A DNA stretch of 64,000 nt, from NCBI GenBank assembly GCA_027451365.1, contig DAIDJN010000011.1, positions 10,048 to 74,047 of the forward strand, given 5' to 3'. Below the pieces are notes generated by a model. It saw only the letters and a program-made list of their open reading frames with translations. It was not told the origin of the DNA and searched no databases. This document shows, piece by piece, positions 2,742 through 46,144 of this stretch (position 1 is its first letter; every line of letters begins with the position of its first letter). Source of the DNA: Phycisphaerales bacterium. GTDB taxonomy: Bacteria; Planctomycetota; Phycisphaerae; WQYP01. Both the position numbers and the translations under genes were made by a program.

Positions 2742-3832
2742 TTTGGATTGTCGGGAAAGCTTTCGCATGCTTTGGCAACATATTGAATATAGCCTTCACT
2801 TATAGTGCTGATGTTATTCACTTTCAATTTACTGTTATCACTTGCAACCGATTGGCACGCCTGATTTTACGTCGTTTATGAAAAAAGTATTCTTTAATTA
2901 ATCTGTGTCCCTCATCGCTCGCTTAAAATCGCCACAGGACCAGTTCAACCTTGAATTCCTTAAGCCCAGACGCGCCGCAAGGCCATCGCTTTCTACCGCC
3001 ATTGTCGATACGTCACCTCACGTGGAACAGAAACATCGGCGGCATCGTCATCGTACCCTAACTGTATTTCACCAGTCGGACATATTCCATTGGAATCGCC
3101 ACCCAGGCAGTACGTTCGCTATAGATCAGAAGCGTCCATCGATGCACCTCTGATATTTGCGAGAGCGCGTTGTTCTGGGACAGCCCAACCATGCACAACC
3201 GATTCTGGAGAACGCCACTGAATCTCGGCGTCACGTTGGGTTGGAAGCGGCGGCCAGGCGTATCCTTGGTTATTTCCACCCATCAAACAATCCGCTGCCG
3301 CAAAGATATTCGCCGCCATTTAGCAATCATTTTTTTGTAACCACGATACTATTTTGCGAACGCGTGCATTGATTTTCGCCCACCCACGTGTTGCCCCACC
3401 TCGTGGCTTGTCAGTTCGCCGATCGCCTGATGCGCACTTTACATCGAAGGCTTCAGCAGCTTTGGTAACTCCGCTACGGTCCCGATCGCCACTGGCTGGA
3501 ACGATTGCCTTGTCGGGCGCATATATCGGTGCCGAAAACCACCGCATTATCACGACACACCGTTGCAGAATTGCCACCGGGCGGGTTAAAACCGCCGGCC
3601 GCGGATTCGGCGACAGCGCAATCGGAACGTAATTGCACGGGCGTTTCGGTAATACGATATTGATTACAACGTAAACAGCCGCAGCCAGATTGAGGTTTGT
3701 TTGGCCGCGCGCCCGCCTTGCGCTTCACGGCGCACCCAAAATATGGCCCGCAGGCAAAGGGATGGCCTGGCGACTCCGCGTCTCCCCGGCTTGATGGCGA
3801 CCGGCCGCGTCAGTCGGAAGAAGGCCAGGAGA

Positions 3833-4930
3833 TTAACCGCCGCCATATGGCGATACATATACATTACTGAAATCAGACGGGGTCACCGCCGCGGCATGGC
3901 CATCCACAAATCCAACGTTAATGTGATTTCCATGGCGGTCAAAACCCAGGCCTATGTTGGTATCGCCAGTGGGCAGCGGAAGCGCCGCGGGCGCCATGGG
4001 AATGCGGTCGCGAAGCGCGCCGTCATCGGCCACGGCCCGCAATGTGCACAGATTTACTGTCGCGGGCAGTCCTGCGCCGGTATCAAACGCGGTGGTGTAA
4101 TAGGTTTCGTCACAATAAAACAGACCATTGCTGCCCTGGGCATCCAGGCCACCCGGATTCGGCCGCACGCCGCAGTCTGCAAACATCAGCGTTTTTGTCG
4201 GCATAGGAATTCCGGTCAGACGACACCCCCACGGCGCGGTAAGCCCGGATGCCGCAACCGGCCCGGCGGCAATCTGGAAACCCCAACCCGGATTAAACGC
4301 GCCATAAGAACCGTTGTATTTAGCCGAGGCGATATCGGCATTGATTCCGTACGAAACCGGATAATAGCCTTGAAAATAGCCTGGATAACCGGCGGGCGTC
4401 GGTTCATTTGTACTGCCCGATCCGCTGCCAACCTGCAGGTTGTTAAACAACTGATAACCGGGATATTGATCCGCCAGTGTTGGATCGCTGGGACACAGGA
4501 AAACCTTGGAACCTGCCCCATTATTTCCAAAATTCATAAAGCTCTGGTCGTTCTGGCCGCCCAGAAACGGCACCAGCGCACTGGCCCAGTCATTAAGCAC
4601 CGCCCCGCCGGTGTTCACATATTGTCTGGTGACGGGGTTGTACCACTGATAGCGGTAAGAAAAAGTGGTGTGGTCGGCATCCGGCGTCAGGGTGTATTGC
4701 ATAATACTCGAATCGGTATCCGGCTGAATAAAGCCGTTATGCTGCTGCGAAAATTCCACCTCCGCAAGAACAATCTGCCGCACATTGGACAGACAGACGG
4801 TGGAACTCGCTTCCTTTCGCGCCGCGGCCAGAGCCGGCAGAAGGAGGGCGATCAGCAATGCGATAATGCTGATCACCACCAGAAGTTCGATAAGGGTAAA
4901 TCCTTCTCTGTGTGAAACATGCTTAAACAT
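3833..4930 (-). CDS. DUF1559 (SBP_bac_10) prepilin-type N-terminal cleavage/methylation protein
   Basis: G^[26 protein letters not shown]...C.SN.RQI N-terminus, FLCPSD, SYGIN, and C-terminal RH..IN.GFVDGHA (H-X9-DG) motif. Confidence 0.92.
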
Positions 4931-4957
4931 GGGATAGCCTCCTTACAGGTCTTAAAA

Positions 4958-7900
4958 TCAGACTGTTCGGCGAAATTTCGAGCGGCCCGGCAATACCAAT
5001 GGAACGAGTCCCAGCAGCAGAATGCCGATCGCCGCCGGTTCGGGTACCGCCACGGAAAGTGATGTTGCCGGATATTGCGCCAGCAAAGCGTCATAGGCCT
5101 GCATTGTCTGGCTGCTGGCACCAACAGATGCAAGCTTTGCGCCAAAATCAAGCAGGTCGCTACGGCCAATCAGCCCGTCGTGGTCAAAGTCCGCGGCGGG
5201 ATTAAACAACGAATTGTTGCTGGCCATCAGGCTGGAAAAAGCCTGCACATCCGCCACGTTGTACTGCCCGTCAAAATTCAAATCTCCAAGGCCTGCGCCA
5301 TATATTGTGGAGGTATAAAGCCCGGCGAAACGCTGAATATTATAGGTGCCATCGGGCTTGTACGTGACCACCGTGGCAACATGGTTGCCGCTGGTCAGGC
5401 CTGTTTCATTGATAACCCATAAATTGGTATCGCTTTGCGAAGCCTGGTTGGCATTGCCCACCATCGCAAGCACTTGGGCATTGGTGTCCGCCGCGGGCAG
5501 GTCCCACAGGACATGAATATTGTTCGCAAGGCCATCAACGGATTTCACGACCAGTGACCGATTCTGATTCACGCCTGGCGTAATCGGATTAAAACTTTGA
5601 ATGCTGGAAACCGGTGCGGAGGTGTCCACGTATATGGTTTGAGTCCAGTCGGTGTATACAGGGGGCCCGCCGCCAGGCCTGGCGCGAAACGCGATGGCTT
5701 CCAGATAATGATAACCCTGTGAAAAATCAGCAGTGTTAATGGTTTCAGAATACAAACCCGTCCCTCCACCCACCAGCGGGCTGGAGCTTTCAAACGGAAT
5801 ATAACCATAGGCCGTTGTGTTAGGCACCGTGCTGACAAAAGTCTGGCCGTTAAGTTGCACGCCTCCGTCGATTTTTAGTATGGCATTATCGCCGCCGGCG
5901 TTATAGTCAAACAGGCTGGAATTTCCCAACAGATAGACCTTCTGGGTCTGCAAGTTAACCTGAAACTGGGCCGCCTTGATTACCGCAATGGTGCTGACGG
6001 TATTATTTCCGTTATCAAAAGTGATATTCGGGTCGTTGGCGGCGGGGGCATTGCCCCCCATCTGCCCAGCTACATTGGTCAGAGTAAGCGTGCCAATGGG
6101 TGTGGGTGGCGCGTAAATCAGATATCCCTGACCATTGGAATTGTTGTTGGGAAACGTCACATTTACAGTGCTGTCCGAATTTACGGTCAGCACCTGTGGC
6201 AATCCATTCTTCGCCGCATTACCGGTAACTTCAACCAGATAGGGGACATTGTATGCATTAAAGTTCGTCTGCAGCGTGGCATTCAGGTTGCCGCCGCCGG
6301 TCTGGTTGTTCAAAAGTACCAGCGCTGAATCACTGCGTTCAAAGGCGAAATTATTCTGTGACAGGTAACGCTGCACATAATTTCCGTAGGCAAAACGGTT
6401 GCGCAAATCCACCAGACCGGAAACCTGATTGTCCAGCGTTTCAGTCATGGTGCCGCTAGCGGGGTTGTAAATGTTCTGCGAATTATTAGCCAGTGCGTTG
6501 CCGTAAACACCGCCCAGGGCGTCCCCACGGCCATTTTGTGGAAAGCTCTGTGTGCCGTTATCAAACGCGGTGGTGTTGCCGTTGTAATACACAATGGCCT
6601 GCCCCGGCATCATCAGTGTATAGGCGTAGGCGACGTTGCTAAGATATGGCGCGCCGTTGTCCTGGCTTTGAACAAATTTAACTCCGATAAGTCCATCGTG
6701 GGGCGTGGCATCATAAGAATCCAGAGCGGCGTTGACCACGTTATACCAGTTGTTGGTATAGCCATTGCCGGTCAGGTTGCTCTGCATCGCAAAAAACAGC
6801 GGGAAATCCAGCGCATCCCGGTTGGGCTGCACGGTGCCATTGTTACCATAATCCACCAGCGAGCCGTCCGCGTTCAGGCCGCTTTTCTGAATGACCTGCA
6901 CGGTGGAATCCTGAAAGGCGTTTGATGCGCCGGGAATATTGGAGTCGTAATATTCAGAAAAAGCGGATATCGGTTCCTGAACACCGTTGAGATATGTGCG
7001 CGAGGAGGCCCGGTAAACGGCTTGATCAAAATATGGCAGCGCGACCTGCCATTCCATGTTCTTGACCGCATCTAAACGGAAGCCATCCACACCCAGCGAT
7101 TGCACAAACCACTGCAGGTTGCGCATCATGTAACCGGTCACATTTTCCGTGGTGGGCGAACCGGCAGCCGCATTTGCCGTATTAAATGAATTAATCTGAA
7201 TATTTCCCTGGCCGGTCAGTGGGTTGTAAACAAAAATCGGATTGTTATTCAATTGCGGATAAAACTGCTGATTCATCGGCATCGGGTCATTGGCCAGGCG
7301 GCCGAAGGCCGGCGTTGTGCCAGCGGGAATGTTGGCAGTGTTGCCGGCAGTCGTTGGATTGCGAATGTACTGGTTGTTGGTTGTAAAATCTATGTTAATC
7401 AGGCCAGCCAGCCGCGCCTCTTCGGTATTGGAGGCATATGCGCTGTTGAAGTCACCGTCAACTGCAGTTGGCGTCTGCACCACCATACCGGGATAGGCCC
7501 CCGCCTGCACAAAACCCGCAGTGGCTGAATTGGAAAACCCGTTATGGCCCATGGAATAATCAGTATAAAAATAGCCGCCCATCTGGTGCGTGGCGGCGAT
7601 CAGATTTTCATAGCCTTGAAGTGTTCCATATGCGGTCGGATTATTCGCTGATCCCAAATCAAATCGATTGTATATGTCGTAACCAACCGAACTGTTGCCC
7701 GAATCGGCACGTGTGGGCGGCGGCGTAAGCAGTGAACCATAACCGGCTCCAAACACGTCCGGCATGCGGTTGGTAATATTGACCCACCCGCCACCAAAAT
7801 AGTCCAGCATTGCCGGCGGAGAAAACGCCCCATAATTCGCCGCCGCCGCGGGACCGGGAATACTTGCGCTGCCACAAATGGCCAAGCCGGCTGCCAGAAG

Positions 7901-7966
7901 GATGGACCGCCCGGCATTCCGCCTGCGATGACTTGTATGACAAGATTGTGCTGCAACGCGATTCAT
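4958..7966 (-). CDS. Surface-anchored GH13 alpha-amylase-family protein with dockerin-like repeats and PEP-CTERM tail
   Basis: Signal peptide; SVGYDIYNRFDLG; DGFRLDAVK (nucleophile); FSEYYD; FVQSQDN; GDLNFDG...ADFDHDG EF-hand pair; VPEP + TM + basic tail. Start placed at ATG 7966 after GAAGGG. Confidence 0.85.
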   Translation of the reverse strand: MNRVAAQSCHTSHRRRNAGRSILLAAGLAICGSASIPGPAAAANYGAFSPPAMLDYFGGGWVNITNRMPDVFGAGYGSLLTPPPTRADSGNSSVGYDIYNRFDLGSANNPTAYGTLQGYENLIAATHQMGGYFYTDYSMGHNGFSNSATAGFVQAGAYPGMVVQTPTAVDGDFNSAYASNTEEARLAGLINIDFTTNNQYIRNPTTAGNTANIPAGTTPAFGRLANDPMPMNQQFYPQLNNNPIFVYNPLTGQGNIQINSFNTANAAAGSPTTENVTGYMMRNLQWFVQSLGVDGFRLDAVKNMEWQVALPYFDQAVYRASSRTYLNGVQEPISAFSEYYDSNIPGASNAFQDSTVQVIQKSGLNADGSLVDYGNNGTVQPNRDALDFPLFFAMQSNLTGNGYTNNWYNVVNAALDSYDATPHDGLIGVKFVQSQDNGAPYLSNVAYAYTLMMPGQAIVYYNGNTTAFDNGTQSFPQNGRGDALGGVYGNALANNSQNIYNPASGTMTETLDNQVSGLVDLRNRFAYGNYVQRYLSQNNFAFERSDSALVLLNNQTGGGNLNATLQTNFNAYNVPYLVEVTGNAAKNGLPQVLTVNSDSTVNVTFPNNNSNGQGYLIYAPPTPIGTLTLTNVAGQMGGNAPAANDPNITFDNGNNTVSTIAVIKAAQFQVNLQTQKVYLLGNSSLFDYNAGGDNAILKIDGGVQLNGQTFVSTVPNTTAYGYIPFESSSPLVGGGTGLYSETINTADFSQGYHYLEAIAFRARPGGGPPVYTDWTQTIYVDTSAPVSSIQSFNPITPGVNQNRSLVVKSVDGLANNIHVLWDLPAADTNAQVLAMVGNANQASQSDTNLWVINETGLTSGNHVATVVTYKPDGTYNIQRFAGLYTSTIYGAGLGDLNFDGQYNVADVQAFSSLMASNNSLFNPAADFDHDGLIGRSDLLDFGAKLASVGASSQTMQAYDALLAQYPATSLSVAVPEPAAIGILLLGLVPLVLPGRSKFRRTV

Positions 7967-8097
7967 CAGGAACCCTTCAATTGTTTTGTTCGGCATCGGC
8001 CTGCCGGCCGACTTATTTCCCGCCCTCCGCGGATAAGTTCAGTGTCTGCCTGTTAATGGCCGGAAACATCCGGCCCCATCTTGTCAGCGGCGAGGGG

Positions 8098-9099
8098 TCA
8101 TGCACAGGCCGCGCCGCGGCGCAGACGCCGATCTCCACGGCCAACCAGCAGCCCACAGCTTGTGGCAACAGCCATCAGCAACAAAGCACCTGGTTCGGGC
8201 GTGGGATTCGGTTCGGTTATCTGCATACTGTTGAAATAATCATATTGCGATGCCAGACCCGCGTTATCGTTGTACACCATCAACTGATTAATGGGCAGGC
8301 CGTTAAGTCCGGTCAGGACGCCAGAATCAAATATCGCGCCTTGGGCGGAATTCTTCGGTGTCACAGTAACTTCAAAACTGGTGGCGCTTTTCAAACTGAA
8401 AGTTACCACAATACCGCTGCCATCATTCTGGCTGCTGCTGCCGTCATTGACTGATTTAATTCCGGTACTGACCGAATTGGTGAAGCCCGGCTGGGCGGCC
8501 GTGTAACCACCGTAGCTGAAGGTGTAATAATTTCCACTGCCGGTTGCCGCAACCTGGAATATGGGGGTCGCATAACCACTGGTGGCATTGTAGCTTTGCA
8601 GTTCAAAGCCCTCTTGACCAGGATTGCTCATAGCTCCGGTCACCATGCCAAGGCTAAATGAACTTGTGCCGCCGGCGGAAGCCGTCATGGGTGTAAATCC
8701 GCGATAGGCATAAGGAGCCGACGGATCAGACCCCGACCCGTTGTTTGCGTCAATTCCCCAGGAAACGCCATTGGTATCAATTGTGGAAGCCGCAGTTGTG
8801 CCATAAATGTATTGCGAAGGCCCGGTGAAAAATCCCCAAGTGGCCGCCTGACCCACACCGGACCCGGAAGGCCCCTGATACCATGGCCCGAGACCGGCGA
8901 CGCCGTTGCTCGATCCATTGCTTAAGGTGGGCCATGTTCCGGAAGGATAAGCGGATGTCGAGGCATTGTCGGACAGGCTCACAGCGCCTTGTACAGCGCT
9001 GTGAGCCATTAAAAATCCGACCAGTCCAGAAAGCGCTGCTGAAACCAGCGTGCGACGCCACAGATCCGATCTGGCGGAAACTTTCTGTTCAACCGTCAT
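8098..9099 (-). CDS. PEP-CTERM sorting-domain protein (paralog C)
   Basis: Signal peptide, S/T/G-rich body, TPEPGALLLMAV...RRLRR tail; GGAGAG RBS before ATG 9099. Confidence 0.85.
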   Translation of the reverse strand: MTVEQKVSARSDLWRRTLVSAALSGLVGFLMAHSAVQGAVSLSDNASTSAYPSGTWPTLSNGSSNGVAGLGPWYQGPSGSGVGQAATWGFFTGPSQYIYGTTAASTIDTNGVSWGIDANNGSGSDPSAPYAYRGFTPMTASAGGTSSFSLGMVTGAMSNPGQEGFELQSYNATSGYATPIFQVAATGSGNYYTFSYGGYTAAQPGFTNSVSTGIKSVNDGSSSQNDGSGIVVTFSLKSATSFEVTVTPKNSAQGAIFDSGVLTGLNGLPINQLMVYNDNAGLASQYDYFNSMQITEPNPTPEPGALLLMAVATSCGLLVGRGDRRLRRGAACA

Positions 9100-9172
9100 A
9101 ACTTCTCTCCAGAACGAAAAAGAATCCACCCGAACCGGGGCGATTGACTGCCAACGCATTTATTCGCGAACA

Positions 9173-10177
9173 TCAGGCCATCTTTCGGCGCCGAGCCAGC
9201 AGAAGAACCGCGCCGCTGATTCCGATAAGGGCCAACGATGCAGGTTCCGGCGTGGCGGTGGTTATTGCCAGCGAGTTAAACAGGCCATCCTGGTATGTGT
9301 TCTGATCAAAAAGATCTGCCCCGTTTATCGCGCCGGCGGCAAGCGTTCCATTGTAAGTGGCAAGCGTGGTTGGAGTGGCCCCTAAGCTGGTTAACGTAAG
9401 GGAGTAATTATTTCCCGCGCCAAGGGTGAAATTGGCCATCACGCCCGAATTCAGCTGCGCATCAGTTAATCCGCTGATCGAGGATGTGGTTACACCGTTG
9501 GCAGTAACGTTCGTTTCCAGAATATATGAACCTGCGGAAGCCGAACCGGTCTGACCGTTATAGCCGACCAGATTACCGCTGGTGTTGTTCGTCGGGCTTC
9601 CCAATTCGTTGAAAGTCAGACTGAACAGCGAATTGGCGTCATTGTAATTGGTAGCCGATGTCTGGCCGCCATTGCCGGTGGTTACAGCCACGGTTCCCGC
9701 CGTAAGGGATGGAGCCGCCGATCCAAGCCCAAATCCGTACGCCGGCATACCGTTTGGCGGATATGAACCCACGCCCGAACTGGTAAGCGCCACACTGAAA
9801 GTCTGACCAACTGAAAGCGAGCCAGTAAAAGCACGATACAGATCCACTCGCGGCGTGGCCGTCGGTGATCCGCTGTTGGCATAGGTACCCCATGCGTCGG
9901 AACTGGTGGCGATAGAAACATTGTTGGTATTGAAATACGTTCCAGTGTAGGGCGGACCGCTGTTATTCTGAGTGGAAATGGTCCATGCGCCAAATCCCGA
10001 TCCCGCGTTGGGAGGTGTCCCGCCATTGGGCCAGGTGGTGCCGGTGTAATTACTCGCATTGTCGGCGGCATTCATTGCAGCGCTGGCCGGTGCAGCCAGG
10101 CAAAATGACACCCCGGCGGCAACCGCCATCGCGGACAAAGCCAGGATTCTGGGAGAATTGGAAAGGGAGCGTTTCAT
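9173..10177 (-). CDS. PEP-CTERM sorting-domain protein (paralog B)
   Basis: Signal peptide (APASA), TPEPASLALIGISGAVLLLARRRK tail; AAGGAG RBS before ATG 10177. Confidence 0.88.
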   Translation of the reverse strand: MKRSLSNSPRILALSAMAVAAGVSFCLAAPASAAMNAADNASNYTGTTWPNGGTPPNAGSGFGAWTISTQNNSGPPYTGTYFNTNNVSIATSSDAWGTYANSGSPTATPRVDLYRAFTGSLSVGQTFSVALTSSGVGSYPPNGMPAYGFGLGSAAPSLTAGTVAVTTGNGGQTSATNYNDANSLFSLTFNELGSPTNNTSGNLVGYNGQTGSASAGSYILETNVTANGVTTSSISGLTDAQLNSGVMANFTLGAGNNYSLTLTSLGATPTTLATYNGTLAAGAINGADLFDQNTYQDGLFNSLAITTATPEPASLALIGISGAVLLLARRRKMA

Positions 10178-10244
10178 GGTTTTCTCCTTCCGAGAAAAAA
10201 GGACAAAAAAAAATGACACGACGTTGACAAACGCCGTAAGTATT

Positions 10245-10273
10245 AGTTTAACCGGTTAAACACACTTTGTCAA
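10245..10273 (-). promoter_or_regulatory. sigma70 promoter overlapped by perfect 16-bp palindromic LacI-type operator O1
   Basis: Minus strand TTGACA-17 bp-TAAACT; GTTTAACCGGTTAAAC at 10246..10261 covers the spacer and -10. Confidence 0.8.
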
Positions 10274-10601
10274 GTACCGCCTGATTTTTTCGTTTTCACA
10301 TTGATCTGCAGTGGTCGCGCCATTTACTGAATTGCGACCCCTATTATTCCGGAGCAAGAATATTCCAAGCCCGCGAATATCTTTCATGCCGACACCGGAG
10401 AAAAACGCTTCCGAATTCCAAACCGCCAACGATATGGAGTCTTGCGGCTTGAAACGCGTTCACCACAGCAAGCCGGCACTGCGGTCCGATTCAGGTCGGA
10501 TTGCATATCCAAAAACCAAACTTGCCGCCATTTTGACACGATGTGAACCGCAATTCATGCAAATTCAGACAAGCCCTGCCGGTGATGAGTCGCGACCTGT
10601 A

Positions 10602-11477
10602 TCATTCAGCGAGCCGCTTCCCAATCCTGCTTCGCAACGCCAAGCCGATTCCTCCAGCCAATGCGCCCGCCAGCAGCAGTCCAAAAGACGCAGGCACCGG
10701 CACGGCTGCGCCCGCCGGGGCGGTCAGAACGGGGCTATTAATGTAAAAGTTGTTCCCGTCACCCGAGCCAGCGTTCAGGTCTACCGCTTGAAATCCAGCA
10801 ATACTTCCCGAAAATGTACCGGTGAGAGTGGTTGTTGTCGCAGACGATCCGATTGGCGTAATTGCAAGCGAATAGGCCGTGGCGGAGGTGAGCGTGTACG
10901 TCAAATTCAGACCAAAGTAGGTAAATCCAACGCCCGTTGAGGCACCGGAAATGGTTGCGTCCGAATAGAAATAGTCGCTCGCGCCACCGTTGAAGCCGAA
11001 AGTCAGGATGCTGCTGCCCGTACTGGAAACCAACGTCACGTAATCTGAACCAAGTGTATCAACATCGCCGTTGTCAAAAGCGATGGAAAATGAGTCCCCA
11101 ACCTGCATCGCCCCGGCCGAAAAAGTTCGCGAGGCAGTGGCTGATGCGCCACTATTGGCGTAAAGCCCCCAGGATTTGCTCGGGGTGCCAGTGTCAATGT
11201 CGCTGGTATCGCCGGCGGGCAGCGAATTCCCGTTATCGTTTACGGTCGATGACCCAATGAAAAAGCCGGAGCTGCTCGACCCGGTCAGGGTCCATGCCGA
11301 ATAACCAGTGCCACCGGTGCTTCCGTTTGTCCAGCTTGTGTAATTGGAAGCAGCATCCGAAGCTATCACGCCGGCCTGACAACTGGCAGCACCGAGTAGT
11401 GCAGCCATCGCCGCCAGCGGCATCAATCGACCGGATAAGCCAGAAATTCCAAACTGATTTACTAAGTTCTTGATCAT
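10602..11477 (-). CDS. PEP-CTERM-like (VPVP variant) protein (paralog A)
   Basis: Signal peptide, ASDAASNY..W.NG..GGTGY..W motif, VPVPASFGLLLAG...RSR tail; GGGAG RBS. Confidence 0.85.
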   Translation of the reverse strand: MIKNLVNQFGISGLSGRLMPLAAMAALLGAASCQAGVIASDAASNYTSWTNGSTGGTGYSAWTLTGSSSSGFFIGSSTVNDNGNSLPAGDTSDIDTGTPSKSWGLYANSGASATASRTFSAGAMQVGDSFSIAFDNGDVDTLGSDYVTLVSSTGSSILTFGFNGGASDYFYSDATISGASTGVGFTYFGLNLTYTLTSATAYSLAITPIGSSATTTTLTGTFSGSIAGFQAVDLNAGSGDGNNFYINSPVLTAPAGAAVPVPASFGLLLAGALAGGIGLALRSRIGKRLAE

Positions 11478-11637
11478 AAAGAAGGTCTCCCTAAAAAGGT
11501 GTAAAAAAAACAGATATCATGAAATCCGCAGCGGCGAAAGAATTAATCCCTCATCATCCGTGCAGGCTTCCAACCAATACTTCGGGGCGACAGGTCGTTC
11601 CAAATCGCTCCCGGCTTGCCGCCCGTTTCCGGCATTT

Positions 11638-11653
11638 AGTGAACCGGTTAATC
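11638..11653. promoter_or_regulatory. LacI-type operator O2
   Basis: AGTGAACCGGTTAATC, same core as O1, in the leader of the 10602..11477 gene. Confidence 0.6.
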
Positions 11654-11867
11654 GAGCGGGCAAAAAAAAACACTCTCGCAACATTCTGCCATCCGCATAG
11701 GCACCGGGCAGACATCACTCTGTTGAACGAATGGCAAGACTTCGCGCAAAACACGTAAAATCAAGCTATTTTTCACTACTTCGCCACCGAATCAGCAACT
11801 AGCGACTCTTGGCTAACCAAATTCTCACCGCATCACCGGCAGGTGAAAACAGAACCAGTTGCGAAGT

Positions 11868-11919
11868 AATATAAAACATAAAATCCACCTTGTCAAGGAA
11901 AAAATTGTACCGGTTCAAT
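11868..11919 (-). promoter_or_regulatory. sigma70 promoter for the left arm plus adjacent operator O3
   Basis: Minus strand TTGACA (11896-11891)-17 bp-TATATT (11873-11868); ATTGTACCGGTTCAAT at 11904..11919. Confidence 0.7.
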
Positions 11920-12029
11920 AATCTGCACCACCCGCATCCGATTGCCGCGGCATTATGCGCCCTTCTAACATTTATCGACGGCGGCACTTTCCGAATCGCG
12001 ATTTTTAAACGTAACCCTTATGCGACAGC

Positions 12030-12065
12030 TTGACATTGTTCAATCATATAGTAAACTGGTTAACA
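12030..12065 (+). promoter_or_regulatory. sigma70 promoter of the LacI gene with overlapping operator O4
   Basis: TTGACA (12030)-16 bp-TAAACT; AGTAAACTGGTTAACA at 12050..12065. Confidence 0.65.
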
Positions 12066-12326
12066 ATTGCTAACCGGACAGGTGGTCCGCACCGTCGCTA
12101 CCCATTTCAGGTCGCGAAGGCTCTCCGGCATAACCATTGCCGGTTCAGCGATGCAGTGCTGCACTTTAGTTTGGCGAATGAAACGACATTCACTGAACCT
12201 GAAGTGTCCGCAAGCTTCCGCACTTTGCGGTATGTATATCGTTGTATTGGCAACATGGGAATCCTTGCTGTGGCCGCAAAACCTAAAATTAGCAAACGGC
12301 CAGACCCGCCCGCTGGCGATCTGGCA

Positions 12327-13436
12327 ATGCACGATATTGATGCGGTTTCGCCGCGAAACGTAACCGTCCGTTTTGATGCCCCCCTGCCCGACGACAAACC
12401 CCTGGAAAAGGTGAATATTCGGGATGTGGCCCGCGAAGCTGGTGTTTCAGTCGCCACCGTTTCCATGGTGCTGAACGACAACCCGCGCATCAGTCGTGGC
12501 ACACAGGTCCGTGTTCAGAAAATGATTGAACGCCTCGGTTATCGCCCCAACCGGCTTGCCCAGGGGCTTTCAAGCAAATACACGCAGGTGCTGGCCGTTA
12601 TGCTGCCGCCGCTGCGTCACGCCCTGGCGGATGCCTATTTTGGTGAAATTATCAGCGGCATAGTTGATCGTGCCGGCAAGCTCGGCCATAAAATGATGAT
12701 CGAACAGGCCAAACCACAATTCATAAAAGAAGGTAAACACCTTGAACTTTATGAACGTCGGTTCGTGGACGGTATCTTGTGCCTCGGCTTTAATGAAAAG
12801 CATACGTTCCTTGCGGACCTTGCCGGCCCGCAGTATCCCATGATTCTGGTGGACAACCGATTTGGCGACCAATTACTGGATTGCGTCCATTGTGATTACC
12901 GCCTTGGTGCCGAACAGGCGATGAACTGCCTGCTGCAACTCGGCCACCGCACCATCGGCATGATTTATGCCGCACCAGAAAGTCCCACTTCACGTGATGT
13001 GATGGACGTCTACAAAACCCGCCTGGTCGAGGCTGGCACCGCCCCCGCGGATTCCTGGATGGCCGATGGAATGTTTACCGATGAAGGTGGCGCCGCGGCC
13101 GCGCAGGAACTCATCACCCGGCATCCAAACATTACGGCGATCCTCTGCGGAAATGACAAAATGGCGCTTGGCGCGATCCGCTCCCTTACGCTGCACGGAT
13201 ATCAGGTACCACGCGATGTTTCCATCATCGGCTTTGATGATCTGCAACATCTGGCGTTCAGCAATCCCAGCCTTACCACCGTCCATCTGCCGCTATACGA
13301 ACTTGGTGTGCTGGCCTGCGAACGGCTGATCGAAAAAGTGCGCGGCAAAGTGGAACGGGTTGCCGAAGTGCTGCCCACCCATCTGGTGCTGCGCGAATCC
13401 ACCAGTATGGCGAGGCGTCTGGCCGACGCGCGCTAA
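12327..13436 (+). CDS. LacI/GalR family transcriptional regulator
   Basis: HTH NIRDVAREAGVSVATVSMVLN, LGYRPN..AQGL hinge, DVSIIGFDD, PSLTTVH. Start is ATG 12327 or GTG 12411; the ORF-finder TTG at 12030 is the -35 box. Confidence 0.95.
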   Translation: MHDIDAVSPRNVTVRFDAPLPDDKPLEKVNIRDVAREAGVSVATVSMVLNDNPRISRGTQVRVQKMIERLGYRPNRLAQGLSSKYTQVLAVMLPPLRHALADAYFGEIISGIVDRAGKLGHKMMIEQAKPQFIKEGKHLELYERRFVDGILCLGFNEKHTFLADLAGPQYPMILVDNRFGDQLLDCVHCDYRLGAEQAMNCLLQLGHRTIGMIYAAPESPTSRDVMDVYKTRLVEAGTAPADSWMADGMFTDEGGAAAAQELITRHPNITAILCGNDKMALGAIRSLTLHGYQVPRDVSIIGFDDLQHLAFSNPSLTTVHLPLYELGVLACERLIEKVRGKVERVAEVLPTHLVLRESTSMARRLADAR

Positions 13437-13584
13437 GACAACCTGGCGAATTGCGGGCGGCAACGTTTATCGGGTTTGAGTTTTCACGACCGAATCCAAT
13501 AATAGACTCACGACATACTTCATGATTGCTTTTGGCTTTTCACGGCACCAGCCAGCCGTAACTTTTTATTTGGAATAACATACC

Positions 13585-16239
13585 ATGTTGCCGATGATGA
13601 CACCCCAACGATGCTGGCGATTCACGATCGCATCAGCCCTTCTGATTGCCGCTATTCATGCAGGCGTGCTCGCATCCATATCAGCCAAAGCCGGCGCGGC
13701 ACCGGTCACGGCCGCCGATCCGGTTGGCCATCTGGCAAAAATTGCCGCGAGGGTGGCCCATACCTTCCGCTATCAGGTACCGGCCAATTCACCGGCCCCT
13801 TCCCGCGTGAACCTAGCCGGAGATTTCAATAATTGGTCGCCCACCGCGACCCCCATGACGCCCGCAGGCGCCAAATCGCCCGGAGAATGGTCCGTGACAA
13901 TCCGCCTTACACCGGGATTGCACCATTACAAATTTGTTCTTGATGGCAACCACTGGATTCCTGATCCAGCCGCGGAACTGCGGTTTTCGCAAGAGGATGG
14001 CAATGGCGGCCAGAATTCTGGAATACGCATCCGGTCTGTCTGGCAGCGTATGCCCTCGCCAGCGCCCAATCTGGTGGCCATCCACAGGATCGCCTTTTCC
14101 ACCCACTCCATTGATCAATGCGATGTGGTTACGCCAGATACGCTGCGTTTGACACTGCTGGCGCAGACCGGGTCGTTGACACATGTTGCCGCGCTCATAA
14201 AAGTAAACCGCCACAAGTGGAAAACAGTGCGGTTGTACTCGGAATCAATGGATCGCGATGCGACATCATGGGGAAACATCGCACGTGTACGCGGACCCGA
14301 GGCGCGCTATTGCTTTTCGTTGACCAATGGCCGACAGACCCTGTTCCTGGCCGACGGAGATTTTTACACCACGCCGATCGCGGCCGAGGCTCATGCCTAC
14401 GCCATTGCCATGCGGCCCGCAGTGGTCACGCCCGGTTGGGCAAAAAGGGCGGTCTGGTATGAAATATTTCCCGAACGTTTTGCCAATGGCAGCAAGGCCA
14501 ATGACCCCGCCCATCACATTCCGTGGCGCTGGTCATGGTTTAAACCGTATCAACCGGCCGGCGAAAAAGGAAACTTCTATACTTATGTATACAATAGATT
14601 TTATGGTGGAGACATTCAGGGAATCAGCCAGAAACTCAACTATCTGCGAAAACTGGGCGTTACGGCGCTCTATCTGACACCCATTTTTGAATCCCCGTCA
14701 ATCCACAAATATGATCCATCAGATTTTCGCCATGTCGATGACGGCTTCGGCGTAAAAAATTCGATCGATTTGCTGAAGGGGGAAAAAATACGCGATCCCA
14801 AAACCTGGCAATGGTCCGCGTCCGATAAAATATTTCTGCACTTTATCCGTCAGGCCCACAAGCGGGGATTCAAAGTCATTATTGATGTCCCGTTCGGTCA
14901 TTGCGGTGTTGGCTTCGGCCCATTTCAAAGTGTTTTAAAACTAGGGAAAAAATCTCCCTATGCCGGCTGGTTTGACATTCTTAAATGGGGACCACCCGTC
15001 GTCTACCAGGGCTGGGGACAGGTCGGTGGCAATATGCCCATGTTTCGACATTATCCCGGCAGCGGACTGGCACCCGGCTATTGCCGCTATCTGTTCGCCA
15101 TTACACGGCGCTGGATGGCACCCAACGGAAAAGTCGCTGATGGCATTGATGGCTGGCGGCTGGACACCGCACCGGATGTTCCGCATTCATTCTGGATCGC
15201 CTGGCGAAAAGTGGTCAAAGCCATCAACCCTAAAGCCGTTATTATCGGCGAAATATGGACGCCATCGCAGGCGTGGCTCAACCGTGGGAATCAGTTTGAC
15301 GCCGTCATGAATTACCCGTTCGCGACACTCTGTACACAATTTTTCGCCGCCAATCGGCGCGCCGGCGGCATTGGCATCGGGCCAAAGAGGTTCGGTGCTG
15401 CCCTGGCCAACATGCTAAACTGGTATCCGTGGCAGGTGGATTTAACCCAGCAGAATCTCATTGATAGCCACGATACTGATCGATTTGTCTCGCGGCTTGT
15501 CAACATGAATCTTCCATTTAATGCAGATGACCACCTCCAGAATGGCGACCATTACAGCAGCGCCAAACCGACCGCCGAGGACTATACCCGTTTTAAACAG
15601 GTGGTGGCATTTCAGATGACGTTCCCCGGCGCGCCCATGGTCTGGTATGGCGATGAGGTCGGTATGTGGGGTGCCACCGACCCGTCAGATCGCCAGCCGA
15701 TGCTCTGGAAGAAGCTCATGCCCTACAACGACCCGCAACTGACCATCAACAGATCGCTTCTGCATTTTTACCGCCGCGCCATCGCGGCCCGCCGACTGCT
15801 TCCGCCGCTGGAGATCGGTTCTTATGGCCAGCTTCTGGCGTTCGACCGCCGCGACGTTTTCGCCTTTTTTCGCACCATCCGGCATCAGCACGTGTATGTA
15901 GTGCTGAACCGGAGCAGCCAGCGACGGATCGTCAATCTGCCCCTGTTTCCCGCGGACTGCAATCACCATTTATTCGATTATCTCTCGCAACTGGATTTTC
16001 ACCTGAAAATGCCGGCACATCAAAAAGGGGGTGGCTGGACTCGGCCAGTTCTTATCTTGCGCCATCGCGCAACCGGGAAGATCAGCCCCGGACCGGTTCT
16101 GACGTTGACGCTGAATCCGTGGCAAACCATGATTTTGGCCCGGAAGTCCGTTGAATCCACCACCGGCCTCCAGACTGCGAACAACACCGGCAAACCCTCG
16201 GCGGGTAACCATGTCATGGAGAGCCGATTGCAGAGATAG
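13585..16239 (+). CDS. Secreted GH13 neopullulanase/cyclomaltodextrinase-like glycosidase with CBM48 (glycogen-binding) domain
   Basis: Signal peptide; VNLAGDFNNW...HYKFVLDG.W..DP (CBM48/AMPK-type); YEIFPERFANG; GGDIQGI..KLNYL; DGWRLD; IGEIW; SHD; YGDEVGM. Confidence 0.92.
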   Translation: MLPMMTPQRCWRFTIASALLIAAIHAGVLASISAKAGAAPVTAADPVGHLAKIAARVAHTFRYQVPANSPAPSRVNLAGDFNNWSPTATPMTPAGAKSPGEWSVTIRLTPGLHHYKFVLDGNHWIPDPAAELRFSQEDGNGGQNSGIRIRSVWQRMPSPAPNLVAIHRIAFSTHSIDQCDVVTPDTLRLTLLAQTGSLTHVAALIKVNRHKWKTVRLYSESMDRDATSWGNIARVRGPEARYCFSLTNGRQTLFLADGDFYTTPIAAEAHAYAIAMRPAVVTPGWAKRAVWYEIFPERFANGSKANDPAHHIPWRWSWFKPYQPAGEKGNFYTYVYNRFYGGDIQGISQKLNYLRKLGVTALYLTPIFESPSIHKYDPSDFRHVDDGFGVKNSIDLLKGEKIRDPKTWQWSASDKIFLHFIRQAHKRGFKVIIDVPFGHCGVGFGPFQSVLKLGKKSPYAGWFDILKWGPPVVYQGWGQVGGNMPMFRHYPGSGLAPGYCRYLFAITRRWMAPNGKVADGIDGWRLDTAPDVPHSFWIAWRKVVKAINPKAVIIGEIWTPSQAWLNRGNQFDAVMNYPFATLCTQFFAANRRAGGIGIGPKRFGAALANMLNWYPWQVDLTQQNLIDSHDTDRFVSRLVNMNLPFNADDHLQNGDHYSSAKPTAEDYTRFKQVVAFQMTFPGAPMVWYGDEVGMWGATDPSDRQPMLWKKLMPYNDPQLTINRSLLHFYRRAIAARRLLPPLEIGSYGQLLAFDRRDVFAFFRTIRHQHVYVVLNRSSQRRIVNLPLFPADCNHHLFDYLSQLDFHLKMPAHQKGGGWTRPVLILRHRATGKISPGPVLTLTLNPWQTMILARKSVESTTGLQTANNTGKPSAGNHVMESRLQR

Positions 16240-16333
16240 CGTTTATCGGCACACCACTGAATTGATATGTGCGGCAAACCGTGGTTTGGTCTAAAATGAG
16301 CAGCCTTAAGTTTTAACTCTGGCCGGAGTTCTG

Positions 16334-18940
16334 GTGATGTCGCTCTCCAATCCGCTGCTGATCAAGCCGATTCTTACCTTAGGCATCGCGTTTCTGTTTT
16401 TTATGCTGATCGCCGCGGTCTGGCATTTGGCAAAAATTCTTGCCGGAAAGCTTTTCGCCCGGATTGGCGCTAACAAAAACAAAGCTCTTTCAGCCGGCGT
16501 GCTGCCCGCGGCCTGGCGGCGGTTCAGCCGTGGATGTTCGTGGACGCTGGTGATCCTGACCATCGCGGTTGTCACTTGGTCGTTTTTTCGGGTCGGCATG
16601 GAGGCCCTTGGCGGATACAGGCAAGGCCGCTCCGTCATTACGCTGCGCATTCTGCATTGGGGATCTCCTTCGGAAGATCGCATAGTCCGCAGGCTGATTC
16701 AGAATTTTGAAGCCCACCACCCCCATGTGAGGGTTCAGGACATCAACGATTCCGGCGACTACCCGGCAAAACTCAAGACCATGTTCGCCGCCGGAGCGCC
16801 ACCGGATCTGTTCTATATGCCGGGCAGCAGTTTTTTGCGATTGGCGCGCGACGGCCTTCTGCTTAATTTGACTCCGCTGATTGCCCGGCAGCGCGCGAAG
16901 GGACATTTTTTATGGCTGGGCGACATGTACCCGGCACTGCGCAAGGCTTATGAATTCAATGGTCGTACAGTCGGGTCTGGAAATCTTTACGGGCTGCCAA
17001 AAGACTGCTCATCCATGGTGTTTTATGTGAATATAAATCTTTTCCACAGAGCACATCTGCCCATCCCATGGCACGGGTGGACCTGGCATACTTTCCACCA
17101 GGACGCCCGAATCATCTCCAAATTGCCCGCCGATTCCAATGGTCCATTTTACGGGGCGGTTATCAACACCGCCCCGCTGGAATTTCAGAATATCATCTGG
17201 TCATTTGGCGGACATTTTTTTTATCATGCAAATTGCCGCCGACCCGCGTTGGACTCGCCGGCCGCACAGGCCGCGATGAATTTGGTTTATACGATGCGTT
17301 TCAAGGATCACAGTGCGTTTAATGCCACAGGAATCGCGCATCACGGAAGCGAGGAATTCTATCGTGGTCAGGTTGGCGCCATTGGCCCGCAGGGACGCTG
17401 GACCACCGTTCCTTATCGGTACATTCGGAATTTTAAATGGGACGTTGTGCCCGTGCCCCACGGAGCCAGAAACATTTCCAGCATAACCACAGTGGCCTGG
17501 TCGATTGCGGCGGCCACCCACCATCCGCGCCATTCCGTGGAACTGCTACGCTTTCTATGCGGACCACGTGGCCAGTCGATTCAAGCCAAACTGGGCCTTT
17601 CCATTCCCTCCCTCGAATCCGTCGCACATTCCACGGCGTTTCTCGTTCCCGGCCAGATTCCGGCACACTCCCAGTTATTCCTGACCGCTCTGGCACATGG
17701 CAGATTGCCTCGAGCCTTTGCGCATCATGCGGAATTTCGCTCCATTCTTCAACAGGAAATCACTGCCGCCCTTCGGCTGGGCATCAAGAGTCCGCTGGCC
17801 GCCGCGCATGCGATCACGCGGCGTTGGAAGGCGCTGCGGGACGCCTCACGGAATCAATCAGATCATCCCCCGATGCCCTGGCGATTTCTGGCCATTGTCA
17901 CCACCATGGCACTTGCACTGCCTCTTATTTGGTGGCTGTGGCGTATCCTGAGAACCGATGCCAAATACGCGAGAAATAGAATCGGCGTGCTGTTTATCTC
18001 TCCCTGGCTGATAGGATTTTGCGCACTTACCGCCGGCCCCATGACCCTTTCCCTTTATCTTTCGCTCACCCACTGGACGGCCATTCAACCGCTGGCGGAC
18101 GCCCGGTTCACCGGGCTGCGGAACTATCATGATATACTTCTGGCGGATCATAATGTTTTTCACGCTTTGTGGCTGACCCTGCTGTACGTGGTCCTGTTAA
18201 TTCCCCTTGGCCAAGGCCTGGGGCTGGCACTGGCCATTCTGGTCAATACGCGCACCGCGGGCATTCGATTTTTCCGAACCGCCTTTTTTCTTCCATCTGT
18301 TGTCAGCGGTGTGGCCATGGCCACGCTTTGGCTTGGCATGTTCAATGCGGATTACGGCCTGGTGAATGCGGTGCTTGCGCCGGTCCTCAATTTACCATCC
18401 AGTTTGCTTGGCTTTCTGGCCGGCCTGCCAGGGTTGCAGCAGCCATTCGCCTCATGGTCCGCGGCGGTCCATGTGGCCCCGCCAGACTGGTTCGGCCTGG
18501 ATGCACGCCATTGGGCGGTTCCCGGTTTTGTGCTGATGGGATTATGGGGCATTGGCAGTGCCATGATTATTTATCTGGCCGGCCTGAAGGCCATCCCCGA
18601 ATCTTTTCACGAATCTGCCCGCGTGGATGGTGCCGGCGCATTTCGGCGCTTCTGGCACATTACACTTCCAATGCTTTCTCCTCTTGTTTTTTTCAATGTC
18701 GTCATGGCCATGATCGGCTCTTTCCAGATATTCACCCAGGTGCAGGTCATGACCAACGGAGGCCCGGACAAGGCCACCAATTTCTACGTCCTTTATCTTT
18801 ATCATCAGGCGTTTGAGTATTACCACATGGGCTACGCCTCGGCTCTGGCGTGGCTGTTGTTTGCACTTCTGCTGACACTGACACTTCTATTATTCAGAGT
18901 GTCGCGCCGCTGGATTTATTACGAGGCATTCCGCGAATGA
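16334..18940 (+). CDS. Sugar ABC transporter: solute-binding protein fused to MalF-type permease
   Basis: KLKTMFAAGAPPDLFYM and LYGLPKD (SBP family 1), followed by FISPWLIGF, FFRTAFFLPSV and EAA loop IPESFHESARVDGAG. Confidence 0.9.
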   Translation: MMSLSNPLLIKPILTLGIAFLFFMLIAAVWHLAKILAGKLFARIGANKNKALSAGVLPAAWRRFSRGCSWTLVILTIAVVTWSFFRVGMEALGGYRQGRSVITLRILHWGSPSEDRIVRRLIQNFEAHHPHVRVQDINDSGDYPAKLKTMFAAGAPPDLFYMPGSSFLRLARDGLLLNLTPLIARQRAKGHFLWLGDMYPALRKAYEFNGRTVGSGNLYGLPKDCSSMVFYVNINLFHRAHLPIPWHGWTWHTFHQDARIISKLPADSNGPFYGAVINTAPLEFQNIIWSFGGHFFYHANCRRPALDSPAAQAAMNLVYTMRFKDHSAFNATGIAHHGSEEFYRGQVGAIGPQGRWTTVPYRYIRNFKWDVVPVPHGARNISSITTVAWSIAAATHHPRHSVELLRFLCGPRGQSIQAKLGLSIPSLESVAHSTAFLVPGQIPAHSQLFLTALAHGRLPRAFAHHAEFRSILQQEITAALRLGIKSPLAAAHAITRRWKALRDASRNQSDHPPMPWRFLAIVTTMALALPLIWWLWRILRTDAKYARNRIGVLFISPWLIGFCALTAGPMTLSLYLSLTHWTAIQPLADARFTGLRNYHDILLADHNVFHALWLTLLYVVLLIPLGQGLGLALAILVNTRTAGIRFFRTAFFLPSVVSGVAMATLWLGMFNADYGLVNAVLAPVLNLPSSLLGFLAGLPGLQQPFASWSAAVHVAPPDWFGLDARHWAVPGFVLMGLWGIGSAMIIYLAGLKAIPESFHESARVDGAGAFRRFWHITLPMLSPLVFFNVVMAMIGSFQIFTQVQVMTNGGPDKATNFYVLYLYHQAFEYYHMGYASALAWLLFALLLTLTLLLFRVSRRWIYYEAFRE

Positions 18941-19902
18941 CACAGCCAAGCCCAATGCCGAAGATCCAAAACGCCCCCGCCCCACCGGTGGGAGCCCGCG
19001 TTCGTCGGTTCGCCCGATGGCTTCTGGCCCCGTATACAGATCTGCTGGACCTTCTTCAATACCGGCACGAGCGCAAATATTCGCGCGCACGCATGGCCCT
19101 GATCGCCGGATTGCTGTTGCTGGCGGGTACCGCCTTTATAGCCCCGTGGCTTTTTATGCTAAGCGGCAGTCTAAAAAGCGAACAGGCCATGCAGGCAGGC
19201 GGATTCAATCTATTTCCCCGCAATCTGCATTTGATGAATTATCCGCGAGCGCTCGTCCGGATGCACTTTATCAATGCCCTGGCCAACACTATTTTCGTTA
19301 CGACTCTTTGCGTCCTGGGCCAGGTCATATCCAGTTCGCTGGTCGGCTTCGGTTTTGCCCGCCATCGCTTCTTTGGAAAAAATACACTGTTTGTCATCAT
19401 GCTTTCCACGCTGATGCTGCCCGCCCAGGTTACCATCATTCCCGTCTTTCTTTTGTTCCGATCGCTTGGCTGGATTAATACGTTTCTTCCCCTGATAATT
19501 CCCGCCTGGCTCGCGTCGCCATTTTTTGTGTTCATGTTCCGCCAGTTCTTTGCCCAGATTCCGGAAGAACTTATTGAGGCCGCCCGAATGGATGGCTGCT
19601 CGGAATGGACAATCTATCTAAGGCTCATGCTGCCCCTGTCTGCGCCGGTGATCGCCATTACCGCCATCTTCAGCTTTCTGGGCGCCTGGAACGATTATTT
19701 TTCTCCGCTGATTTATCTTGATTCTCCACGGCGCTACACGCTGGCTCTGGCACTGGCTGGGTTCAACGGGCAATATGGCGTCACACATCCACAATATCTG
19801 CTGGCGGCAAGCTGCGTCACCATGCTTCCCTGCCTGGTTCTTTTCTTCGCCGCGCAGCGCTATTTCGTGGAAAGCCAGACTTTTACCGGAATCAAAGGCT
19901 GA
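18937..19902 (+). CDS. Carbohydrate ABC transporter permease (MalG type)
   Basis: ATGA overlap with the previous stop; FRQFFAQIPEELIEAARMDG EAA motif; FLGAWNDY. Confidence 0.93.
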   Translation: MTQPSPMPKIQNAPAPPVGARVRRFARWLLAPYTDLLDLLQYRHERKYSRARMALIAGLLLLAGTAFIAPWLFMLSGSLKSEQAMQAGGFNLFPRNLHLMNYPRALVRMHFINALANTIFVTTLCVLGQVISSSLVGFGFARHRFFGKNTLFVIMLSTLMLPAQVTIIPVFLLFRSLGWINTFLPLIIPAWLASPFFVFMFRQFFAQIPEELIEAARMDGCSEWTIYLRLMLPLSAPVIAITAIFSFLGAWNDYFSPLIYLDSPRRYTLALALAGFNGQYGVTHPQYLLAASCVTMLPCLVLFFAAQRYFVESQTFTGIKG

Positions 19903-20338: not shown

Positions 20339-20351
20339 GGGTGCCTGCACG

Positions 20352-46122: not shown

Positions 46123-46144
46123 ACCGGAATATGAATTCGTTTTC

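Follow-up and report, generated by a model that had tools for sequence, protein, structure and literature searches.

The starch utilisation system (Sus) of Bacteroidota comprises SusC/SusD, SusE/F and SusG. Here we compare it with a two-armed locus (positions 3833 to 19902) in a 64,000-nucleotide stretch of Phycisphaerales contig DAIDJN010000011.1 (assembly GCA_027451365.1), hereafter the window, in which genes for glycoside hydrolase family 13 (GH13) enzymes lie with those for a LacI-family regulator, proteins with PEP-CTERM sorting tails, parts of an ATP-binding cassette (ABC) importer and a type IV pilin-like protein. As in Sus and other polysaccharide utilisation loci, carbohydrate-active enzymes (CAZymes), surface binding proteins and a regulator are co-located, under joint control as far as sequence indicates; the co-regulated cluster combines an amylase predicted to act at the surface with non-catalytic surface proteins, a second GH13 that is exported, and a regulon GH31, and the surface parts are substrate-specific in both systems. 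However, the window locus and its assembly (4.06 Mb, 88 contigs, 93% complete, the completeness at which all assembly-wide negatives hold) show no TonB-dependent transporter or SusD, PEP-CTERM tails stand where Sus has lipoprotein anchors and LacI where it has SusR, an ABC importer serves the inner membrane, and a dedicated pilin-like gene is the most constant uncharacterised part. The locus is not of the SusC/D kind, but we consider it likely that it works in a similar way, with a pilus subunit in the selecting role.

Four other systems come close, as far as the accessible text of their sources goes. Akkermansia MUL2 (PMC13174399) also ties pilus parts to glycan foraging in a PVC bacterium, but encodes machine parts and one pilin, whereas the window locus has only its own pilin-like subunit and the machine lies elsewhere and is shared. 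The N_methyl + SBP_bac_10 family (DUF1559, PF07596; PMC8567305) shares the prepilin, C-x-x-N-x-R, CP and H-X9-DG motifs and occurs as tens of paralogues per genome, with neighbours that have signal peptides; the window pilin differs in scoring below the Pfam cut-off and in belonging to a clade tied to a defined substrate class and an operator, a tie that we did not find reported. In Planctomycetia, pili-like fibres bind dextran, an alpha-glucan that builds up in the periplasm (PMC5394234), and the 'fishing rod' hypothesis, as reviewed in PMC12078418, invokes dedicated pilin-like proteins. That work is microscopy with no gene assigned, whereas the window locus supplies, for Phycisphaerae, a gene candidate together with a substrate class and a regulator. 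Finally, CbPilA of Caldicellulosiruptor bescii (10.1101/614800) is a polysaccharide-induced type IV pilin that binds polysaccharide but, unlike the window protein, is the major pilin of a monoderm, serves adhesion only and is not one of many locus-specific paralogues.

According to the accessible part of PMC11131199, Planctomycetota CAZyme clusters are still without functional characterisation; the accessible part of PMC13526803 mentions neither pili nor PEP-CTERM. Loci combining pilin, PEP-CTERM, GH13 and LacI genes were not described in the literature searched, largely open-access full text without most subscription papers or bioRxiv supplements. Two open questions are touched by the locus: how polysaccharide crosses the Planctomycetota outer membrane without SusC/D, and what role the tens of DUF1559 pilin-like paralogues play. 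The locus links a single pilin clade with a substrate class that is defined and cheap, with its own operator and with a strain in culture (ZRK32); this makes the 'fishing rod' hypothesis testable, and the results suggest that pilin clades could serve to read substrate ranges from genomes. New here are the predicted operator, its co-variation with the regulator, and a pilin clade that persists while every partner is replaced.

A pilin clade tied to alpha-glucan loci

Genome comparison lends good support to a class-wide, predicted alpha-glucan regulon with a substrate-dedicated pilin-like gene. Scanning one genome per prokaryote species with the pilin-head alignment alone yielded 68 loci, all from Phycisphaerae/Planctomycetota records, and 60 of these hold alpha-glucan-type enzymes: homologues of the window GH13s, GH77 or GH31 lie within 10 kb in 55 (in L086 only as broken GH31 pieces), and five more carry other GH13s. 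The remaining eight comprise five loci cut by contig ends (L071, L075, L082, L090, L108), one with LacI, operator and an X25 protein (L099), one with operator sites and a PEP-CTERM gene (L093), and L104, where a clade pilin stands with no alpha-glucan gene recognised among the annotated genes. In an evenly drawn sample of 251 Phycisphaerae genomes, tallied from the result tables, with the pilin scored on nine candidates per genome so that misses are possible, the pilin and the PEP-CTERM-tailed surface amylase of the left arm occur together in 44, the pilin only in two, the amylase only in 15 and neither in 190. Thus 44 of 46 genomes with the clade pilin have the amylase, within about 11 kb in 42 of the 44, and the clade is present in 2 of 192 amylase-free genomes, both of which carry the exported GH13 with its carbohydrate-binding module (CBM48-GH13). 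Relatives share ancestry and the counts are not independent, so we claim no p-value. A phylum-wide sample gave the amylase in one of 150 other genomes at E 1e-40, and a metagenome scan with the amylase gave three loci, the two long ones with the full cassette.

An earlier note on this DNA, made from its letters alone, had named lack of conservation among relatives as a way to refute its claim; the locus proved conserved across the class. Its idea of a substrate-specific pilin-like subunit is supported, as a gene dedicated to one substrate class, by the 60 head-found loci and the 251-genome co-occurrence, and we regard dedication of the pilin to alpha-glucan use as highly probable on this comparative evidence.

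The clade is well separated within a large family. By motif and profile counts the window genome has 41 pilin-like and 73 PEP-CTERM genes, and the head profile finds one good match among them (E 2e-142 to itself, 7.5e-9 to the next paralogue). The 64 alignable clade pilins form one group apart from 37 window-genome paralogues and seven other pilins (FastTree 0.83), as do 32 of the 64 in a head-only IQ-TREE (SH-aLRT 99); the tree set was chosen by likeness, so these trees show clade separation, not discovery. The clade model also picks up pilins named from Phycisphaera mikurensis, Algisphaera agarilytica and Mucisphaera calidilacus. The window protein itself passes PF07963 and TIGR02532, and reaches 16.2 bits against a cut-off of 23.3 for PF07596 (DUF1559). 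No H-X9-DG model was listed for it at E up to 10, and the motif is readable at H333..D343-G344. Since many close homologues carry PF07596 in precomputed tables, we treat it as a divergent DUF1559 relative; the label given by the earlier note holds by kinship and visible motif but not by score. A class III signal is present (G10/F11..E15), and the G/F site and Glu+5 are invariant in all 64 clade members. The predicted structure (predicted local distance difference test, pLDDT, 90.5) has a 50-residue N-terminal helix and a head of ~300 aa; the structures closest to it are type IV pilins, aligned along the N-terminal helix and C-terminal strands, and the matches are weak (Z 4.1, root mean square deviation 3.6, 118 residues aligned to 6xxd), with no Foldseek match at E 0.001.

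Partners of the pilin change from locus to locus. Full-length PEP-CTERM amylase occurs in 17 of 36 same-family genomes, always with the pilin gene directly after it (17/17), and the CBM48-GH13 in those 17 and two more. The ABC importer that the earlier note made part of the system is there in the window, as fusion and permease, but is not a fixed component: a full-length orthologue of the fusion was found in 5 of the 17 and not in the other 12, and G002 has a sodium:solute symporter gene after the pilin and a GH31 after the GH13. Gene order varies, with the pilin after the amylase in 37 loci, first behind a divergent LacI gene in 14 or 15 and last in some. Five loci (L107, L120, L121, L127, L085) have a GntR-type regulator and GH13s unrelated to those of the window, yet keep the pilin clade; X25 starch-binding modules occur in three of the four annotated loci of this replaced-partner set. 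Three unrelated kinds of domain occupy the PEP-CTERM slot: a jelly roll (21/68 loci), starch-binding modules of X25/CBM type, found in many relatives, and a domain that points weakly to glucodextranase-C and structurally matches part of an alpha-amylase cluster. G050 retains pilin, LacI and X25 protein with no match to the window amylase. In G041 and G387 the pilin lies away from the amylase locus with the operator retained, leading GH77 and GH31 in G041 and beside ABC genes in G387; overall, 23 of the 63 loci with a placeable pilin start have an operator no more than 300 bp upstream of it. Since the substrate class is constant while regulator, enzymes and surface proteins swap, we infer that what the pilin recognises is the sugar and not a protein partner.

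In 8 of the 15 amylase-only genomes, LacI and a pilin of a different clade occupy the same slot. This second clade (L039, L045, L167, L168, L170, L171, L174, L176; families f4 and f97) gives no match to the profile of the first, its loci are ordered LacI, pilin, large unknown protein, amylase, and it possibly represents an independent recruitment. Among side observations, the PEP-CTERM amylase gene stands two or three times in tandem in L088, L110 and L122; in the latter two, a pilin with a perfect operator heads GH77 and glucan phosphorylase genes. Second clade-pilin copies, ~60% identical, stand at contig ends beside unrelated genes in G019 and G033 (L040, L041/L042).

Operator, enzymes and surface proteins

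Gene positions and strands in the window were all as the earlier note gave them, and so was the content of both arms: on the left (minus) three PEP-CTERM-tailed paralogues, a PEP-CTERM-tailed GH13 and a prepilin-type protein, on the right LacI, a CBM48-like GH13, a binding protein-permease fusion and a permease. The elements are as follows, in window coordinates.

3833..4930, minus: pilin-like protein, DUF1559/H-X9-DG type, 365 aa; prepilin G/FTLIE site, long N-terminal helix, ~300-aa head
4958..7966, minus: PEP-CTERM-tailed GH13, alpha-amylase-like, ~1002 aa; open frame from 7996, dockerin-like motif before the tail
8098..9099, minus: PEP-CTERM protein A; its domain is predicted to be a beta jelly roll of ConA/GH16 type and is probably not catalytic
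9173..10177, minus: PEP-CTERM protein B, a paralogue of A, encoded by the gene that comes first after the perfect operator
10245..10273, minus: sigma-70-like promoter TTGACA-17-TAAACT for the B-A-amylase-pilin unit; consensus match only
10248..10259, unstranded: likely LacI operator, perfect palindrome TTAACCGGTTAA, overlapping the promoter -10 box and spacer
10602..11477, minus: PEP-CTERM protein C, PVP motif variant, paralogue of A and B; patchy among relatives
11640..11651, unstranded: likely operator copy with one mismatch, within the gene C leader; sister genome G001 has a match
11868..11896, minus: sigma-70-like promoter TTGACA-17-TATATT (11/12), pointing to gene C; consensus match
11906..11917, unstranded: weak, uncertain operator-like copy, 3 mismatches, just upstream of the gene C promoter
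12030..12057, plus: sigma-70-like promoter TTGACA-16-TAAACT for LacI and the right arm; consensus match
12052..12063, unstranded: likely operator copy with two mismatches; overlaps the LacI promoter at its -10 box
12255..13436, plus: LacI-family regulator; start uncertain, ATG 12255 fitting orthologue lengths and the frame being open from 12030
13585..16239, plus: exported CBM48-like GH13 enzyme, maltodextrin glucosidase/cyclomaltodextrinase-like, with an N-terminal hydrophobic segment
16334..18940, plus: sugar-binding protein-ABC permease fusion, by domain matches
18850..19902, plus: second ABC permease; true start probably near 18940

LacI operators are palindromes with a central CG at promoters, a pattern that TTAACCGGTTAA follows, co-varying with the regulator. 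At two mismatches or fewer it has four matches in the window, a number reached by 9 of 100 shuffles and thus not significant in the window alone; a repeat finder did not place it among the top families of the window and returned nothing else notable. Sigma-70 promoters, called by consensus match only over 2700-20400, number 17, near chance (mean 13.5), and the palindrome overlaps or adjoins the three top-scoring ones: the -10 boxes of 10273-10245 (minus) and 12030-12057 (plus) lie inside it, and 11896-11868 (minus) adjoins the weak copy. Among loci with a LacI orthologue, 33 of 39 have intergenic sites at two mismatches or fewer (56 sites against 2.35 expected from base shuffles), compared with 13 of the remaining 29 among the 68 and none of the five loci with a GntR-type regulator; 24 of the 39 orthologues share the recognition-helix region VSVATVSMVLN. 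A remote GH31 gene with a Tat signal (L149:1597-4684, contig C76) has TTGACA and then the operator 59 bp upstream, the site is perfect in sister genome G001, and an orthologue (52% identical) lies inside the locus in genus g2; this GH31 is likely a regulon member. We take the palindrome as real because it coincides with promoters, is conserved in relatives and precedes a remote GH31 of fitting function. The recurring palindrome reported in the earlier note is thus present at promoters of both arms, though its significance comes from relatives and not from the window, and the operator positions and their conservation support one LacI regulon, which very probably covers both arms. LacI would bind TTAACCGGTTAA, its inducer being deduced from context, and through the 12052 copy it may regulate itself.

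Eight other sites with at most one mismatch occur in the assembly, among them sites on contigs C41, C71 and C74; those on C5, C42 and C84 lie inside or at the edge of unrelated reading frames and were rejected as operators. On contig C40 (L134:4640-6277) an operator-like site with one mismatch follows a tRNA-like stretch, ~200 bp before a GPH sugar symporter gene for which no orthologue was found in the 36 relatives.

The PEP-CTERM GH13 scores 22.2 bits against a cut-off of 22 for PF00128 and has distant alpha-amylase matches only. Its catalytic D309, E348 and D446, in conserved regions II-IV, are invariant in 122 of 122 aligned sequences, and the region IV His is replaced by Gln. A ribosome site, AAGGAGG, for the pilin lies within the 27-bp gap behind this gene. 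The CBM48-GH13 is presumably periplasmic. There is no ABC ATPase within the locus and one MalK-like ATPase gene elsewhere in the genome; no GH77 was found in the window assembly.

Proteins A to C are paralogous, with 65/222, 68/209 and 74/193 identical aligned residues between pairs. Four PEP-CTERM tails can be read from the sequence, with PEP motif, transmembrane helix and basic tail, and the genome has two exosortases, as expected of PEP-CTERM/exosortase systems; one protein (B among the paralogues) passes PEP-CTERM models, and the outer paralogue has the PVP variant of the motif. None of the three has a Pfam or NCBIfam domain match, including the starch-binding modules CBM48, X25, CBM26 and CBM53. 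The predicted structure of A (pLDDT 87) is a ConA/GH16-like beta jelly roll, matching part of a sialidase (Z 15.9) and GH16 (15.5), as well as polysaccharide lyase family 7 (PL7) and L-type lectins. GH16 catalysis is marked by an acid-pair motif, and the alignment of protein A shows no invariant acid pair suggesting it. An atlas search with A gave unnamed clusters only. The domain family has 1564 representatives and is often repeated in large secreted proteins. Its unnamed members P0262-P0410 have up to six repeats, some with type IX secretion system (T9SS) tails.

We consider the jelly-roll domain a candidate new carbohydrate-binding module family, and glycan binding by these modelled proteins is plausible. 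Fusion partners were rejected as a pointer to starch, since a window GH13 was matched by 4 of 83 long relatives and Pfam domains in the 51 scanned were mostly Ig-like, PKD, HYR and T9SS. Elsewhere in the genome, contig C86 (L147:6414-11228) holds a XylR/AraC regulator, a pilin, a jelly-roll PEP-CTERM protein and a GH53 galactanase, a parallel plan for another sugar, which is a natural specificity control for studies of the predicted alpha-glucan locus; on contig C66 (L148:5877-12457) a jelly-roll paralogue precedes an unknown 620-aa gene and a GH31. Given the rarity of GH13 partners and the paralogue in the GH53 cassette, starch specificity does not follow from membership of the jelly-roll family. 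The three PEP-CTERM paralogues of the earlier note are present and paralogous, but their standing as a substrate-tied part is weakened: their slot is replaceable and their domain recurs in the galactanase cassette.

Competing accounts of the pilin

The TonB receptor model PF00593 has no match in the assembly and none among locus proteins, and neither SusD PF07980 (one of several SusD models) nor the LamB models match in the assembly. The absence of a TonB-dependent receptor and SusD stated in the earlier note therefore holds for both the locus and the assembly, and the separately encoded pair that would have explained uptake otherwise was looked for assembly-wide and not found; no TonB receptor passes the cut-off in the 17 locus-bearing family members. 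Pilus machine genes are present: three PilB/GspE-like ATPases, one of which reaches the GspE cut-off, two PilT, PilC, PilM, the prepilin peptidase PilD and one secretin. L130:6758-15999 and L131:95-11507 carry the operon that encodes the 1288-aa secretin and PilM, as well as a PilC gene, behind which come four ordinary prepilin genes and a 1227-aa gene of unknown kind. The secretin and PilM match the Amuc_1098 and Amuc_1101 models weakly (80.8 and 181.3 bits against cut-offs of 750 and 650).

We tentatively read the locus as a LacI-repressed alpha-glucan (maltodextrin/glycogen-type) regulon in which the pilin would grip and import glucan in place of SusC/D, a combination that we judge somewhat short of probable. 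LacI would occupy TTAACCGGTTAA at the promoters that serve the two arms and the remote GH31, until a malto-oligosaccharide releases it. PEP-CTERM proteins, processed by exosortase, would hold the polymer at the surface, where the PEP-CTERM GH13 would cut it. The pilin would be processed by PilD and built into a shared type IV pilus, its clade-specific head binding glucan, a step that we slightly favour from its genomic context. PilT retraction might then bring glucan through the single secretin, the weakest step; such pilin-driven import is conceivable, though rather doubtful. Finally, the periplasmic CBM48-GH13 and GH31 would trim the chains, and the ABC importer, or possibly another carrier in some relatives, would take up the products. 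As a still more speculative extension, DUF1559-type pilins might be the subunits by which a shared retractile pilus selects its substrate, importing polysaccharide fragments via one secretin, one clade per sugar; this would amount to a pilus version of the SusC/D repertoire. By the same conjecture, the window locus might be the alpha-glucan module, present in at least four Phycisphaerae families, with a second, unrelated pilin clade in two more.

Several observations weigh against the main reading. TonB receptors pass the cut-off in just 15 of 61 class genomes regardless of the locus, and G041 has both locus and receptor. OprB porins (two to three matches) provide an ordinary outer-membrane route, and pilus import may be unnecessary since they could pass small products. 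Fold searches with the pilin head returned no known sugar-binding fold (best Z 4.1, to a pilin), a null that does not establish a new fold, and the clade-specific head residues are mostly Asp, Ser, Ala, Gly and Asn plus one Phe, without a row of aromatics; D114, S117, F131, D149, N164, D199 and G254 are among them. Seven of the 15 amylase-only genomes have no pilin or LacI in the stretch examined, so the amylase functions, or is at least retained, on its own. Of the five replaced loci, four (L107, L120, L121, L127) are one nested event and not independent; the operator at the GH31 is kept at zero or one mismatch in 2 of 13 matching loci, has three mismatches in one and is absent in 10; and the jelly-roll paralogue in the galactanase cassette means that the domain is not glucan-exclusive. 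The cultured strain ZRK32, whose genome has the full locus (L097) with intact-looking frames, is reported as positive on maltose and isomaltose yet negative on starch (PMC10945688 including its supplement, as far as accessible). Starch as substrate is thus disfavoured, and maltodextrin, glycogen or pullulan remain candidates: an alpha-glucan-type substrate is upheld by the enzymes conserved in the loci, whereas starch itself is not. Taken as a whole, the interpretation in the earlier note is upheld in part: it keeps its regulon, its conservation, an alpha-glucan-type substrate, a dedicated pilin and the absence of SusC/D, while the ABC importer becomes optional, the PEP-CTERM domain non-exclusive and starch doubtful.

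The pilin might serve adhesion only, holding the cell on alpha-glucan particles while small sugars enter via OprB-type porins and the ABC importer. We rate this as unlikely, and as a close rival of pilus import: the regulon and clade evidence fits it equally, OprB genes are in the genome, and accessible text describes both a xylan-induced type IV pilin adhering to xylan in C. bescii (10.1101/614800) and MUL2 of Akkermansiaceae as an attachment system (PMC13174399). However, no operator was seen at the OprB genes of the window genome and no OprB was found in mapped loci by the query set used, surface attachment is already given by the PEP-CTERM binders, the presence of a separate exported enzyme, the CBM48-GH13, suggests periplasmic entry of longer chains, and Planctomycetia carry 10-40 kDa dextran into the periplasm (PMC5394234, in its accessible part). 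A secretion adaptor is improbable. On that account the protein is a minor pseudopilin that binds protein, not sugar, and lets the secretin machine recognise and export neighbouring PEP-CTERM proteins. In its favour, 25 of the 41 pilin-like genes have a PEP-CTERM gene within 1 kb (random open reading frames: mean 2.2, maximum 8, in 1000 draws). The ATPase at the GspE cut-off is consistent with this account, as is the defining paper on PEP-CTERM proteins, which in its accessible part leaves their outer-membrane route open (PMC1569441). Yet 48 of the 73 PEP-CTERM genes have no pilin within 1 kb, the amylase lacks a nearby pilin in the seven genomes above, G050 keeps the pilin without an amylase match, and the clade is constant while the cargo changes (jelly roll, X25/CBM, glucodextranase-C-like, unrelated GH13s).

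A marginally less probable account has the pilin anchored in the inner membrane and never in a fibre, binding malto-oligosaccharides in the periplasm and feeding a transporter or signal. A head of ~300 aa is large for a fibre subunit, Tuwongella N_methyl + SBP_bac_10 proteins fractionate unlike plain pilins (PMC8567305, accessible part), and the unlinked G387 pilin stands beside ABC genes; but the G/F site and Glu+5 are invariant across the clade, the model weakly matches a type IV pilin core, and the ABC importer has its own binding domain. Hitch-hiking, in which a member of an abundant family landed beside a sugar operon and was inherited without a role, is very improbable and already largely refuted. 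It could draw on the 41 pilin-like genes, on gene order shared among kin and on L104; against it, gene order varies, the pilin has its own operator upstream in 23 loci and keeps it when unlinked, a different pilin clade occupies the slot in eight other genomes, and only 2 of 192 amylase-free genomes have the clade.

Neighbouring genes

To the left of the locus, window positions 2669-2741 encode tRNA-Glu(CTC). The 1.1-kb gap behind it (2742-3832) has no long open reading frame, and ~3410-3563 (154 bp) of the gap is 73% like a stretch on contig C41. A mobile island at this tRNA was rejected for now, as the window has no tRNA-end repeat and the gap no integrase-like match in the genome. Five window reading frames of 255-620 aa (37850-39709, 45586-46578, 53463-54227, 59758-62016, 63044-63949) have no Pfam match at E 1e-5. 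A secreted-looking GH51 alpha-L-arabinofuranosidase with an inserted DUF1080-like domain (24918-27521, minus) lies outside the regulon, with no operator seen. Just left of the window on the same contig (C11:6331-9084, L136), a PEP-CTERM-tailed protein of ~900 aa with a weak match to EglC (endo-1,3-1,4-beta-glycanase) adjoins lptG/lptF.

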